This document shows, one piece after another, positions 9,335 to 17,108 of a stretch of 51,596 nt of DNA. The translations under genes were made by a program, and so were the position numbers. This DNA comes from a virus (Duplodnaviria; Heunggongvirae; Uroviricota; Caudoviricetes), in the IMG/VR virus record IMGVR_UViG_2718218098_000003; one strand, 5' to 3'. Numbering within the stretch: the stretch's first letter is position 1; every line of letters begins with the position of its first letter. A model generated the notes under the pieces. It made no database searches. It had not been told where the DNA came from and saw only the letters and a list, made by a program, of their open reading frames with translations.

Positions 9335-10465
9335 ATGGCTTCAAACTGGATAAAGCTCGAGGTTATTACGCCGGATAAGCCGGAAATATTCAGGCTTGCT
9401 GAGATTCTGAATATTGATCCAGATGCCGCATTAGGGAAGGTTATTCGCTTCTGGGCATGGGCGGATCAACAAATGATAGACGGTAATGCAGATTGTAACG
9501 CTCGCGGCGTTACAAAAAGTGCAATAGATCGCATTACTTTTATGGCTGGTTTTGCTGATGCGTTAATTCAGGTTGGATGGCTGGTCGAAAATGACGGTGG
9601 GCTTTCTCTACCTAACTTTGAACGTCATAACGGGAAAAGCTCTAAAAAACGGGCGGTTACAAACGAGCGAGTTACAAAAATACGCGAACTGAAACGAAAA
9701 GGTAACGCTGCCAGCGTTACACAAAGGGATCAAAAAGCGTTACCAGAGGAAGAGGAAGAGGAAGATATAAATACTGATCTAACCCATCCCAAACCCTTCC
9801 CTTCCGGAAGGGAGTTCCGGGATTTTGTGGCGGGAGTGCTTGAGGGGAGATTATCTGGCGGTACTGCAGCGGAATTTTGTAATTCTGCGGTGGTTGCGTT
9901 GCAGGCTGCTGGCCTGGATGTCTGTCGTGAGTATCCGGTGCCAGAGCGTGGTGACGGTTGCGGAGGGCGGATTGATATCGTCGTGACTGACAGGAACGGT
10001 GTCCGGTGTGGGATCGAGCTTGACCGAAATTCTCCGCGACAGAAATCACTGCTCAAAATCGGTGCTGTTGAAACCGGGATATGTGTCTTGCGGCGCAGTG
10101 ATATCGCAAGGCACACCGAGCAGGGAATTCTGGTTATCGGTGGGGCTGTTCGCCAGAAAAAATTTGACCCGTTGTCAGTTGATCTGCCCGACTGGTTGCC
10201 AGAAACACTCTGGCATGAGTGGGTCCAGTTCAGGCAGGCATTGCGAAAACCGATTCGAACGGAGCAGGGCGCTAACGGGGCGATACGGGAGCTGGAAAAA
10301 TTCCGCCAGCAGGGTTTTACACCTGAGCAGGTGATTCGACACAGTATCGCCAATGAATACCAGGGCCTGTTCGCGCCGAAAGGTGTTCGGCCTGAGACGT
10401 TGCTCCGACAGGTTAACACCGTCTCGTTGCCGGACAGTGCGATCCCGCCAGGCTTCAGGGGGTAA
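9335..10465 (+). CDS. Phage replication initiator / replisome organiser with an extra central domain
   Basis: N-terminus WIKLEVITPDKPEIFRLAEILNIDPDAALGKVIRFWAWADQQ resembles replisome-organiser N-domain; followed by DnaC-like loader; central ~100 aa RIDIVVTD...GIELD looks nuclease-like. Confidence 0.6.
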   Translation: MASNWIKLEVITPDKPEIFRLAEILNIDPDAALGKVIRFWAWADQQMIDGNADCNARGVTKSAIDRITFMAGFADALIQVGWLVENDGGLSLPNFERHNGKSSKKRAVTNERVTKIRELKRKGNAASVTQRDQKALPEEEEEEDINTDLTHPKPFPSGREFRDFVAGVLEGRLSGGTAAEFCNSAVVALQAAGLDVCREYPVPERGDGCGGRIDIVVTDRNGVRCGIELDRNSPRQKSLLKIGAVETGICVLRRSDIARHTEQGILVIGGAVRQKKFDPLSVDLPDWLPETLWHEWVQFRQALRKPIRTEQGANGAIRELEKFRQQGFTPEQVIRHSIANEYQGLFAPKGVRPETLLRQVNTVSLPDSAIPPGFRG

Positions 10466-10471
10466 CAGACC

Positions 10472-13520: not shown

Positions 13521-14541
13521 ATGAAATATACACCGGTTGGCGTTGATATCGCAAAACATCTGATTCAGGTTCACTTCATTGATGAGAACACAGGTGAAGT
13601 GGTGGATAAGCAACTTCGTGGCAGAGATTTTCTTGAATATTTCAGCAACCGGGAACCCTGCCTGATTGGTATGGAGGCCTGTGGAGGCTCTCAGCACTGG
13701 GCACGGGAGCTGACAAAGCTGGGGCATAACGTCCGCTTGTTACAGGCCCGCTTCGTTAAGGCATTCGTCATGGGAAACAAGAACGACGTGATGGATGCCC
13801 GGGCTATCTGGATGGCGGTTCAGCAGCCCGGTAAAGAAATTGCCGTCAAAACAGAAGAACAGCAGTCGGTACTGGTTCTGCACCGTACCCGCATGCAACT
13901 GGTGAAGTTCCGGACCGCACAAATTAACGCCCTACACGGGACGTTACTGGAGTTTGGTGAAACCATCCACAAAGGTCGGGCAGCAATGGAGCGGGAGTTC
14001 CCTGAAGCACTGGAACGAATGAAAGAGAGACTGCCACCGTATCTCATCACGGTACTGGAAAACCAGTATAAGCGGGTTGAATGAGCTGGACTCCCTGATA
14101 GAAGACATCGAAAAACAGCTTGCCAGCGTGGCGAAACAGAATGAGACCTGTAAGCGGTTGCTGGATATTCCTGGTGTTGGGCCACTTATTGCGACGGCAG
14201 CGGTGGCCACCATGGGGGAAGCATCAGCGTTTAAATCAGGGCGAGAGTTCGCGGCTTATGTTGGTCTGGTGCCCAAACAGACTGGCTCAGGAGGGAAAAT
14301 TCGCCTGCTGGGGATAAGCAAACGTGGTGATACATATCTGCGAACCCTGTTTATTCATGGCGCAAGGGCGGCAGCATTACTGACTAAAGAACCTGGTCCG
14401 TGGATAACCGAACTGAAAAAACGTCGTCCAGCCAGTGTGGCTATCGTCGCCATGGCAAACAAGCTGGCACGAACAGTATGGGCGATAGCTGCCCATGACC
14501 GTAAGTATGACAGGAACCATGTCAGTATCAGACCATATTAA
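13521..14541 (+). pseudogene. IS110-family recombinase/transposase, interrupted by a +1 frameshift near 14075-14080
   Basis: ORFs 13521-14084 and 14077-14541 together read as one ~340-aa protein (...LENQYKRV / NELDSLIEDIEK...); single extra base in cgggttgaatgag. Confidence 0.65.
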
Positions 14542-15340: not shown

Positions 15341-15732
15341 TGAATGAAGGCGACAATGTTATCACCCTGGTACAGCCAAAATCAGAGGAGGAAGGACTCC
15401 TCAACGTTGTGATAACCGACAGAAAAAGCGGCGAGCAAAAATGCTGTCAGCATATCCGTACAACAATTTCAGAAGTGAATCGTACGATTACCTGTAACCG
15501 ATGCGGATTGGCTTTAGATCCGTTCGAGCTTGTTCTCGACCGTGCGAGAAACGGTGAAAACATCGTGACTGAGATTAAATCACTCTATGCAAAGCGGGAT
15601 GCTCTTCGTGAAGCTGTGGCAAAACTTGAACGTGAAGAGAAAAATGCCAAAGCCCGGTTACGAGCAGCCAGGACAGCAATACTGTATGCGGAAAATGACC
15701 TTAAAAATATTGAGCAGGAGGTGAATCGATGA
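15340..15732 (+). CDS. Hypothetical protein with Cys cluster and C-terminal coiled coil
   Basis: 130 aa; CCQH...CNRCG followed by a coiled-coil-like C-terminus. Confidence 0.45.
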   Translation: MNEGDNVITLVQPKSEEEGLLNVVITDRKSGEQKCCQHIRTTISEVNRTITCNRCGLALDPFELVLDRARNGENIVTEIKSLYAKRDALREAVAKLEREEKNAKARLRAARTAILYAENDLKNIEQEVNR

Positions 15733-15812
15733 CCTGGCCTGAAGCATTCACAACGGTAGGAATTGCGATGGCGGTGGCGCTGGTGGTGTATTCGATTTGC
15801 CGTTGGAGATAA
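15729..15812 (+). CDS. Possible 27-aa membrane peptide
   Basis: MTWPEAFTTVGIAMAVALVVYSICRWR hand-translated; ATGA overlap with preceding stop. Confidence 0.25.
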   Translation: MTWPEAFTTVGIAMAVALVVYSICRWR

Positions 15813-15899
15813 AAACGGTTTGCGGGAAAAGGAGAGTTAAGTAGAATTGCTGCGGGTGCTTGAGGCTATCTGCCTCAGGCATGAACACCAACGGCAGAT

Positions 15900-15990
15900 A
15901 GAGAAAAGCCCCAGTTAACATTACGCGTCTTGCAGGACGCTTAACATTAATCTGAGGCCCAATCTATGTCTCACAAATGTAGGTTAGCCT
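15900..15990 (-). ncRNA. Candidate Sok-type antisense RNA region (not delimited)
   Basis: Placement inferred from hok/sok architecture; no promoter or terminator resolved. Confidence 0.2.
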
Positions 15991-16022
15991 CTTACGTGCC
16001 GAAAGGCAAGGAGAAGCAGGCT

Positions 16023-16178
16023 ATGAAGCAGCAAAAGGCGATGTTAATCGCCCTGATCGTCATCTGTTTAACCGTCATAGTGACGGCACTGGTAACGAGG
16101 AAAGACCTCTGCGAGGTACGAATCCGAACCGGCCAGACGGAGGTCGCTGTCTTCACAGCTTACGAACCTGAGGAGTAA
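16023..16178 (+). CDS. hok: Hok/Gef-family type I toxin (HokD/RelF-like)
   Basis: 51-aa MKQQKAMLIALIVICLTVIVTALVTRKDLCEVRIRTGQTEVAVFTAYEPEE; SD aaggag; in-frame upstream extension from 15966 (mok-like). Confidence 0.85.
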   Translation: MKQQKAMLIALIVICLTVIVTALVTRKDLCEVRIRTGQTEVAVFTAYEPEE

Positions 16179-16248
16179 GAGACCGGGCGGGAGAGTAATC
16201 TCCCGCCACCTCTGATATGTCAGGCATCCTCAACGCACCCGCACTTAA

Positions 16249-16268
16249 CCCGCTTCGGCGGGTTTTTT
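16249..16268 (+). terminator. Intrinsic terminator after hok (cccgcttcggcggg + T6)
   Basis: aacccgcttcggcgggtttttt; same 22-nt sequence recurs at 17087-17108. Confidence 0.7.
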
Positions 16269-16386
16269 CACGTACTGTGGTTGTGAATACGATTGGTATT
16301 AGGCTATGCTAACAACATTAGCCTGACTAATTTTGTATTGACTTAATTTTTGTTAAAGAACAGGACGGAGAAGTAAGGGTACACCA

Positions 16387-16566
16387 ATGAGCTACGCACT
16401 AAAAAAACACCCGCGATTGACTATTCCCCCTCGCGATAAAAGCGTTGTGGCAGCTCCGCGCCCGGCTATCGATGAAAATTGCACTCATCGTGAGCAGGTG
16501 AAAAATGCTTTCGATTTCGGTTTTTCTCGTTACGAGAAGGCAATGGAAGATCTTTCAAAAGTGTAA
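16387..16566 (+). CDS. Putative antitoxin partner of Doc-family toxin
   Basis: 59-aa ORF hand-translated (MSYALKKHPRLTIPPRDK...), 18 nt upstream of the doc-like gene; no family motif recognised. Confidence 0.35.
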   Translation: MSYALKKHPRLTIPPRDKSVVAAPRPAIDENCTHREQVKNAFDFGFSRYEKAMEDLSKV

Positions 16567-16584
16567 TGATGGGTATTGTGCTCT

Positions 16585-17070
16585 ATGGCTGAGATTGTTG
16601 AAGGAGTGCACTACCTTTCGGTTGATGATCTTACTGAAATTAATCGCCTTTTAATTGAGCTTCAAACACCAGATGAACCTGTTGGTGTGCTGAGTGTTGA
16701 TAATTTAAGTTCTTCTCAGTCTCGTCCCAGTATGGTTCGATGGTATGAGCAAACCAACGACATGTTTGTACTGGCATCGGTATTGATTGAAAGTCTGATT
16801 CAGAATCATCCATTTGCCAATGCAAACAAGCGCACAGCAATGATGGCTGGTGCGGTTTTTTTATTGTTAAATGGATACGAATTAACCGCACCAGGCGATG
16901 AAGTTGTGGAGATGGCTGAGGGGCTGGCCTGTAAAATTTATACACGAGAAGAGCTTGAAAATTGGTTGTGTTATTGGTCTCGTGCGTATGACAGTCGGGA
17001 ATTATGTAAAACAGGCGCAACTATTGTTTTGTATGAAACTATCAAGCTTAAAATAGAACAGCAAAACTAA
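16585..17070 (+). CDS. Doc/Fic-family toxin (Doc-like kinase)
   Basis: Motif HPFANANKRTA fits the Doc variant HxFx(D/N)(A/G)NKR of the Fic signature; 161 aa. Confidence 0.7.
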   Translation: MAEIVEGVHYLSVDDLTEINRLLIELQTPDEPVGVLSVDNLSSSQSRPSMVRWYEQTNDMFVLASVLIESLIQNHPFANANKRTAMMAGAVFLLLNGYELTAPGDEVVEMAEGLACKIYTREELENWLCYWSRAYDSRELCKTGATIVLYETIKLKIEQQN

Positions 17071-17088
17071 AGATGCTTCTAATGAAAA

Positions 17089-17108
17089 CCCGCTTCGGCG
17101 GGTTTTTT
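17089..17108 (+). terminator. Intrinsic terminator after doc-like gene
   Basis: cccgcttcggcgggtttttt. Confidence 0.7.

Follow-up and report, generated by a model that had tools for sequence, protein, structure and literature searches.

Two toxin modules in tandem

The DNA analysed here is a 51,596-nucleotide (nt) stretch of a virus of the Caudoviricetes (IMG/VR record IMGVR_UViG_2718218098_000003), referred to throughout as the window, in which a hok-type and a doc-type toxin module lie side by side (Table 1). The part tested is 100% identical to the chromosome of Escherichia coli M19 (NZ_CP010221.1), where the two modules lie in a Rac/Qin-like lambdoid prophage according to the NCBI annotation, which calls hok, a gene for a protein of 59 amino acids (aa) and doc at identical positions. 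All coordinates given in a preliminary description of the locus, made from the sequence without database searches, agree with the sequence, the list of open reading frames (ORFs) and this annotation. We propose, as the probable reading, that the locus holds two independent toxin-antitoxin modules in tandem, one a hok/sok system and the other a type II Doc system, and that doc is carried as cargo in a variable slot bordered by copies of a 22-nt terminator, T.

Table 1. Features of the hok and doc modules and of their surroundings in the window
Feature	Position	Strand	Description
Candidate hok promoter	15820-15847	+	-35 TTGCGG (15820-15825), 16-nt spacer, -10 TAGAAT (15842-15847)
Full-length hok mRNA (predicted)	15854-16268	+	Ends in terminator T1
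tac element	15854-15865	+	GGGUGCUUGAGG; 5' end of hok mRNA, predicted to pair with fbi
Sok antisense RNA	15974->15904	-	71 nt; mapped by alignment to annotated sokW of 933W
mok-type leader ORF	15966 (ATG)-16178	+	70 aa; contains hok in the same frame
sok promoter	15981-16009	-	-35 TTGCCT (16009-16004), 17-nt spacer, -10 TAACCT (15986-15981)
hok toxin gene	16023 (ATG)-16178 (TAA)	+	51 aa; NCBI name hokD
fbi element	16228-16240	+	CCUCAACGCACCC; 3' end of hok mRNA, predicted to pair with tac
Terminator T1	16247-16268	+	AACCCGC-TTCG-GCGGGTT and T run; 3' end of hok mRNA, left border of slot
doc cassette	16269-17108	+	840 bp: leader, 59-aa gene, doc and T2; missing as a block in related prophages
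Candidate doc-operon promoter	16281-16310	+	TTGTGA, 18 nt, TATGCT; overlaps ATTAGGCTAT (16298-16307)
Putative antitoxin gene	16387-16566	+	59 aa; N-terminal IPxRDK motif, C-terminal helix QVKNAFDFGFSRYEKAMEDLSKV
doc toxin gene	16585-17070	+	161 aa; HPFANANKRTA encoded at 16807-16839
Terminator T2	17087-17108	+	Identical to T1; ends doc operon, right border of cassette
ydaU-like replication gene	about 9336-9782 and 10179-10466		Two pseudogene fragments (NCBI annotation)
IS110-family transposase	13522-14541		Inserted among early genes, 1.7 kb upstream of the modules (NCBI annotation)

The hok/mok/sok module

The product of hok covers the full Pfam HOK_GEF profile (PF01848, positions 1–42; E = 3e-23, 81.6 bits against a cut-off of 22) and matches PHROG 251 (7.7e-33), bearing out its assignment to the Hok/Gef family, and 47 of its 51 residues are identical to those of HokW. 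HokW causes growth arrest when expressed, sokW transcribed from its own promoter protects against it, mutation of that promoter abolishes protection, and hokW-sokW is thus a working type I system, which aids phage release after induction (PMC8621323). By homology to this pair, Hok of the window would likewise kill or arrest the cell, and its Sok would protect. The in-frame upstream extension of hok noticed earlier proves to be a Mok-type leader ORF, equal in length and frame to the annotated mokW of phage 933W and identical to it in 16 of 19 leader residues, and by analogy the translation of hok is probably coupled to it.

The preliminary description had expected an antisense RNA of the Sok type, left it unresolved and pointed to the minus strand around 15900–16000. 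As judged from the sequence, both a promoter and a Sok gene are present there. The promoter region matches the sokW promoter of 933W base for base, and Sok is identical to SokW at 62 of 71 nt with an equal predicted fold: its first 14 nt form a single-stranded tail across the start codon of mok, and a long hairpin with a terminal UUUU follows. The Rfam sok/hok-leader model (RF01794) matches at 15854–16028 with 116.4 bits (gathering score 59). Six of the nine differences between Sok and SokW sit in the 14-nt target-recognition tail (window 15961–15974), and the stretch formed by this tail and the mok start also differs in a third locus, N61. Matches to hok are found at up to 10 places in one E. 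coli genome, and such divergence of the tail may prevent cross-reaction among the numerous hok/sok copies that a genome carries.

The ends of the hok mRNA carry tac and fbi elements that are complementary at 12 of 13 nt and are paired in both the minimum-free-energy and the centroid prediction, and the predicted fold as a whole (-173 kcal/mol) is far more stable than that of shuffled sequences (z = -8.2). Terminator T1 starts only 6 nt past fbi and is therefore an integral part of the hok transcript. A candidate promoter ends 7 nt before the start of the Rfam and hok mRNA match, and its -10 region is invariant across four aligned hok loci; it scored under the threshold of our promoter scan. 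This consensus scan found no plus-strand promoter at the locus, and the plus-strand promoters proposed here, for hok as for doc, are weaker than the scan consensus and have conservation as their backing.

With these parts in place, the module is a complete one of a known type I kind. Its closest relative, hokW-mokW-sokW of 933W and the Sakai prophage Sp5, shares 94.6% DNA identity across the regulatory and coding part, but the 933W copy lacks this terminator (homology ends at window position 16250) and occupies another place in its phage. Related loci in E. coli K-12 are hokD/relF of Qin and hokC/gef-mokC, of which hokD lacks the upstream regulatory half, its matches beginning at window position 16009. 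By analogy with these systems, pairing of the 5' and 3' ends would hold the hok mRNA closed, translation of Hok would depend on the Mok leader, and constitutive Sok would cover the mok start and so keep the toxin off until a drop in Sok, on prophage loss or induction, allows Hok to damage the inner membrane.

The doc operon and its 59-aa partner

Doc matches the death-on-curing family toxin model TIGR01550 (3.8e-35, 120.7 bits against a cut-off of 38.65), Pfam Fic (1.6e-11) and PHROG 577, 'Doc-like toxin' (1.1e-48), as well as the sequences of the solved Doc chains 9vzc and 3k33, and its earlier recognition by the HPFANANKRTA motif was thus sound. The HPFANANKR stretch fits the Doc consensus HxFx(D/N)(A/G)NKR, and H75, F77, N79, N81, K82 and R83 are invariant among 33 homologues. 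The pair shares its toxin family, its catalytic motif and the placement of the antitoxin gene upstream with Phd-Doc of P1 and Salmonella Typhimurium. P1 Doc has only 126 aa, compared with 161 aa in the window, where the protein has a conserved C-terminal extension (W127–C141). Doc of P1 and Salmonella is a kinase that inactivates EF-Tu and arrests translation (PMC10440598, PMC9207808), and by homology the Doc of the window would be a toxic Fic-fold kinase that phosphorylates EF-Tu and halts translation. An AlphaFold2 model of Doc, built with 33 close homologues, reached a confidence (predicted local distance difference test, pLDDT) of only 49.7 and was set aside.

The small ORF ahead of doc, proposed as a candidate antitoxin in the preliminary description with the identity of the Doc partner left unsettled, is labelled 'hypothetical' by NCBI and matches PHROG 2208 (5.4e-42), a family of 'unknown function'. 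It is a real gene, as its adjacency to doc is kept and its ratio of non-synonymous to synonymous differences (pN/pS) is 0.08–0.23 in comparisons with diverged E. coli, Salmonella and Ewingella copies (0.07–0.10 for doc), indicating purifying selection on both genes. Whichever protein was used as the query, a homologue of the 59-aa protein was found 3–18 nt upstream of Doc in all contexts examined, and the pair is kept in eight genera (E. coli, Salmonella, Ewingella, Providencia, Serratia, Pantoea, Xenorhabdus and Pseudomonas), without a stop or frameshift in the 59-aa copies. Judging by this conservation, the 59-aa protein is the conserved and selected partner of this Doc subfamily, and a small gene directly upstream of its toxin in a conserved pair is the generic layout of type II systems.

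The contexts of the pair are varied. It follows three different leaders in E. coli lambdoid prophages, lies beside an integrase in two Pseudomonas phages, amid tail genes in myovirus-type prophages of Ewingella and Pantoea, and beside dinI/umuDC on a further contig, and occurs in prophages of Salmonella, Serratia and Xenorhabdus. A copy in the topA-sodC interval of a Providencia chromosome (L259 1818–2489, CP028384.1) has no phage genes nearby, and the pair is therefore not confined to prophages. Salmonella phage SW-37 (L011 ~1300–1950, CP051275.1) carries copies of the 59-aa gene and doc that are both frameshifted, through decay or sequencing error. Between the window (16387–17070) and E. coli TOE17 (L003 1620–2303) synonymous divergence (pS) is 0 in the 59-aa gene and 0.29 in doc, which places a recombination breakpoint inside the two-gene operon.

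A hidden Markov model built from close homologues recovers the remaining homologues of the 59-aa protein at E-values of 7e-14 to 7e-37. The family is small, an exhaustive profile search of 1.84 billion proteins yielding only 38 clusters at 50% identity, all of 38–95 aa, with IPxRDK and QVxNAFxxxFxRYEKAxxxLSKV as conserved motifs. AlphaFold2 predicts a coil over residues 1–33 and one helix over residues 34–57 (pLDDT 94–96), on which the conserved F42, F46, Y49, M53 and L56, with three residues to the C-terminus, show the spacing of the hot spots of Phd. In Phd these are F56, M60, H63, L67 and L70, the last likewise three residues from the C-terminus (PMC9207808). Phd also has a YefM/Phd DNA-binding domain, which the 59-aa partner lacks. 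A short linear helical element, 'Phd-C', can neutralise Doc by itself and can occur with neither a globular nor a DNA-binding domain (Ernits et al. 2023, PMC10440598). The elements described in that study are fused to Panacea or SUMO, whereas the partner in the window would be a free-standing protein of 59 aa with a conserved N-terminal motif of its own. We infer that it is a minimal antitoxin, little more than a Doc-binding helix and devoid of a recognisable DNA-binding domain, which would hold Doc inactive through its C-terminal amphipathic helix in the manner of the C-terminal helix of Phd.

The leaders of the doc operons cannot otherwise be aligned, and the promoter layout and the ATTAGGCTAT motif are their sole common features. 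In the form ATTAG[A/G]CTA[T/A] this motif is common to four leaders from E. coli and Salmonella and overlaps a possible -10 box; in L006, L007 and L012 it lies ~90 nt upstream of the 59-aa gene. Leaders in other genera have palindromes resembling TTACC-N5-GGTAA between -35 and -10. The promoter at 16281–16310, which the promoter scan did not pick up and which has no strong palindrome, is a weak candidate. No inverted repeat of at least 8 nt was found in the doc leader, and the mini-palindromes TTAG-N6-CTAA and AATAC-N5-GTATT were rejected as operators because they are too weak.

The shared terminator

That both modules end with the same 22-nt terminator, as the preliminary description had it, is confirmed. 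The 22-mer AACCCGCTTCGGCGGGTTTTTT occurs only twice in the window, even when up to 3 mismatches are allowed (0 expected from 100 shuffles), and the repeat is exactly 22 nt long since the bases on both sides differ. Both copies fold as hairpins in ViennaRNA predictions. A simple terminator scan reported neither of them, which we think is due to the extension of the stem into part of the T run. Rfam matches to rsmX, istR and isrK at T1 and T2 were dismissed, being below their gathering scores and due to nothing but the hairpin.

Most of the 4720 E. coli genomes that match hok lose homology to its locus at T1. Past T, at a distance of 12–20 nt, -35-like boxes (GGTTGACA, GGTTGTGA, GGTTTACA) are found in most cargo leaders and in the sequence designated flank I; they lie outside the exact repeat.

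A cargo slot behind hok

Comparison of cassette boundaries across prophages, the course that the preliminary description had recommended, indicates that doc is inserted and lost as a unit. In a closely related prophage (L001) hok has a single T behind it, and the right-hand flank of T2 in the window begins directly after that T, the two flanks being 97.8% and 98.2% identical, and other empty prophage sites likewise join their flanks at a single T. Because the flanks of L001 meet at one T, the doc module is an insertion or deletion of 840 bp bounded by T. This sequence (PP818812.1) is filed as 'Actinobacillus phage vB_Apl-pPE4' and is ~98% identical to the E. coli prophage region, so its stated host is doubtful. 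The doc cassette is present in 125 of 5426 complete E. coli genomes and adjacent to hok in about 120 of these 125. T2 stays with the cassette before six different right flanks, also in the hok-less L006, and three of the six flanks are found elsewhere directly after a lone hok T.

Other cargos occupy the same position. In other E. coli prophages hok is followed by RosmerTA (L267 3046–4780; also L026, L278 and L320), identified through PADLOC matches to RmrT (4.6e-25) and RmrA (6e-105), and a third kind of cargo is a pair encoding a helix-turn-helix (HTH) protein and an M78/ImmA-type peptidase. Each of these is followed by T and then by a flank that is also seen after a lone T in empty prophages. 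We surveyed 117 loci with hok and T among the IMG/VR matches listed, many of the contigs being near-duplicates, and counted cargo and empty loci by flank clustering and gene content. Among these matches, to which the following figures apply, a second T stands at the end of the cargo in all 14 cargo loci (6 Doc, 6 RosmerTA and 2 HTH with M78), 823–1848 nt downstream of the first, and no cargo departs from the rule; of the 103 empty loci, only one has a further T within 8 kb (Fisher p = 3e-17).

These comparisons uphold one part of the suggestion that the two modules were acquired or duplicated as cassettes. The empty site in L001 supports doc as a cassette; 'duplicated' is unsupported, since the two modules have only the terminator in common. 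Nor is hok a mobile cassette like doc; it is the resident anchor of the slot.

Further toxin-antitoxin genes lie near doc in other genomes. A Salmonella enterica locus (L012 2496–5009) has hok on the opposite strand together with the 59-aa gene and doc, parDE and vapBC, all adjacent, and in E. coli TOE17 (L003 2354–3002) a RelE/ParE and HTH pair lies past the doc terminator and is encoded on the other strand.

Proposed mechanism and alternative explanations

If doc is T-bordered cargo behind an independent hok/sok module, as we propose, T would end each transcription unit, closing the hok mRNA and insulating the cargo, and its presence at both cargo borders would also make it the homology used in exchange. 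Recombination between T1 and T2 would then remove the cassette and leave an empty site, and gain would follow from the reverse reaction or from a double exchange between prophages; Rad52-type recombinases of phages would probably carry out these steps. Homology-driven, rather permissive mosaicism by Rad52-like recombinases is described for lambdoid phages (PMC3945230).

A number of points weigh against this proposal. For homologous recombination to be efficient a repeat of 22 nt is short, the doc cassette of L006 has no T on its left, and the p value given above overstates the case because the 14 and 103 loci are not independent events. (Ahead of the L006 cassette lies a 31-nt match, 81% identical with E = 0.007 in a tiny search space, that may be a remnant of the hok 3' end; it was only suggestive and was not used.) The 20-mer AACCCGCTTCGGCGGGTTTT occurs in at least 120 viral contigs, where the sequences upstream represent at least 83 unrelated contexts and range from 30 to 67% in G+C, and a hairpin of equal design with another stem is just as common, the broken-stem permutation being absent. 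AACCCGCTTCGGCGGGTTTT is thus a generic terminator with a cUUCGg tetraloop, which readily arises or spreads, and part of the identity of T1 and T2 could be due to convergence. As regards the antitoxin, the 59-aa protein has no match in Pfam, NCBIfam, PADLOC or the PDB, and homology to Phd was rejected because alignment to P1 Phd with hhalign gave a probability of 1.3% and a search of the PDB with the family profile found nothing below E = 0.26. The predicted structure lacks the folded N-terminal domain expected of a Phd/YefM member, and the match of its helix register to Phd is a resemblance and no test. Autoregulation of doc is also left unexplained, as neither a DNA-binding fold nor a strong operator was found.

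Since AACCCGCTTCGGCGGGTTTT ends at least 83 unrelated phage contexts, the identity of T1 and T2 alone proves little about descent, and the earlier reading of the shared 3' end as a sign of common origin does not follow from it. It could even be supposed that T is the same by convergence only, as an optimal cUUCGg terminator with no part in the placement of doc behind hok. The abundance of such hairpins favours this, as does a doc cassette in Ewingella that lies far from any hok and ends with the near-identical CCCGCTCCGGCGGG. We nevertheless consider it unlikely, because three unrelated cargos share this hairpin at every cargo locus (14 of 14) while the empty sites listed have one copy, and because the flank junctions fall exactly at T. 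Three RmrA variants that are only 32–43% identical also end in nearly the same T, which argues against convergence, and we cannot fully explain this constancy. If hok and doc were instead sister cassettes, with a 3' end inherited from a duplicated cassette end or from one source, the identity of 22 nt between adjacent modules and their adjacency in nearly all cassette-bearing E. coli genomes, and in opposite orientation in Salmonella, would be accounted for. This seems to us improbable, as there is no similarity past the 22 nt on either side, hok and T occur without doc in thousands of genomes, doc and T occur without hok in L006 and in other genera, and hok is fixed where the cargo is variable. 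Duplication of T by a dedicated insertion process, either as the target-site duplication of a transposase or by a recombinase that recognises hairpins as in attC sites, would explain direct repeats around every cargo and the hairpin form of T. It is very hard to credit, given that no cargo contains a transposase, an integrase or terminal inverted repeats, that 22 nt is far above the usual target duplications and far below attC, and that the one mobile-element gene in the vicinity is the unrelated IS110 copy 1.7 kb upstream.

A separate question is whether the 59-aa protein might be a regulator, chaperone or specificity factor and no antitoxin, or Doc an effector acting on incoming phage or on host targets, the pair forming a defence or host-modifying moron. 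The absence of homology to any known antitoxin and the unaccounted-for conservation of the N-terminal IPxRDK motif would fit this, as would the presence of the anti-phage RosmerTA in the same slot and the filing of Doc-like toxins by PHROG under 'moron/host takeover'. PADLOC returned no match for the 59-aa protein and marginal ones for Doc, so the catalogued defence systems do not include the pair. Yet the close upstream adjacency, small size, disordered N-terminus followed by a helix, and co-evolution with the toxin in six genera form the classic type II pattern, the kinase motif of Doc is intact, and a role in defence is compatible with a toxin-antitoxin mechanism. We therefore doubt that the pair is something other than a toxin and its antitoxin.

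Comparison with other cassette systems

Integron cassettes have attC sites of 57–141 nt and are moved by the IntI integrase. The slot described here is not of this kind, as T is 22 nt long and no integrase is found in the cargos or beside the slot. The morons of lambdoid phages, reportedly described by Juhala, Hendrix and colleagues in 2000, are said to be self-contained units of promoter, gene and terminator placed between conserved genes. In the defence hotspots of P2 and P4, a fixed position is taken by one or another toxin-antitoxin or defence cargo (Rousset et al. 2022, PMC9122126). Like both, the slot in the window holds self-contained units between conserved phage genes, but it differs in having the same border sequence on both sides and in being anchored by hok/sok, a toxin-antitoxin module in its own right.

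The PeSL element of T4-type phages is the nearest parallel described. There, a hyperplastic region holds non-essential genes between copies of a short terminator stem-loop (Arbiol et al. 2010, PMC2839356), the junctions of insertions, deletions and replacements lie in the repeats, and mini-circles have been shown physically (PMC2839356). In both cases the same stem-loop stands on both sides of the cargo with the junctions inside the element, a pattern seen here in 14 of 14 cargo loci against one of 103 empty ones. In contrast, PeSLs include a strong early promoter and number dozens per genome, whereas T is a bare 22-nt element at one slot of temperate phages; any promoter-like sequence past it shows only loose similarity. 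We put forward with some hesitation the further possibility that T and the promoter-like sequence after it form the joint of a dedicated lambdoid cassette slot, a temperate counterpart of PeSL, in which toxin-antitoxin and anti-phage cassettes would move as T-bounded units, possibly as excised circles, with hok/sok as a fixed anchor that penalises loss of the region.

Prophage context

The position of the modules between the replication genes and the nin/Q region, as first described, agrees with the NCBI annotation of M19, in which replication-type genes (ydaU/ydaV-like, DUF977, DUF551) lie on the left and DUF1367, DUF1364, DUF1133 and lysis genes on the right. The annotated upstream genes are kil, cI/cro-like HTH genes, ydaT, a split ydaU-like gene, ydaV, DUF1627, DUF977, the IS110 transposase and DUF551, after which come hok, the 59-aa gene and doc in that order; downstream, four tRNA genes stand between DUF1133 and the lysis genes. 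The modules thereby fall in the early-right region of the prophage, which is probably defective. An ORF for a hydrophobic protein of 27 aa (MTWPEAFTTVGIAMAVALVVYSICRWR, 15729–15812), which NCBI does not annotate, overlaps the stop codon of the preceding gene, and it is also kept just upstream of the slot in L006.

Implications

Both toxin modules are of known kinds and their recognition is routine annotation. Literature searches found no paper on the adjacency of hok and doc or on the 59-aa partner family, and it is this family and the terminator-bracketed slot behind hok that appear modestly new, being undescribed in the searchable papers. The Doc subfamily is widespread in Enterobacterales and is found also in Pseudomonas phages, and its partner of about 59 aa is 'hypothetical' in every database. 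If it neutralises Doc as a free-standing protein of the Phd-C kind and has no DNA-binding domain, it would show in compact form what a natural minimal antitoxin can be, and one would have to ask how its operon is controlled.

The lambdoid prophages of E. coli have a hotspot for cargo directly behind hok, and in the IMG/VR matches listed these cargos are bracketed by T. This provides a simple rule in the search for new defence or toxin cassettes, namely to look between two copies of T after hok, and the slot offers a testable model of how short regulatory hairpins may drive the mosaicism of temperate phages.

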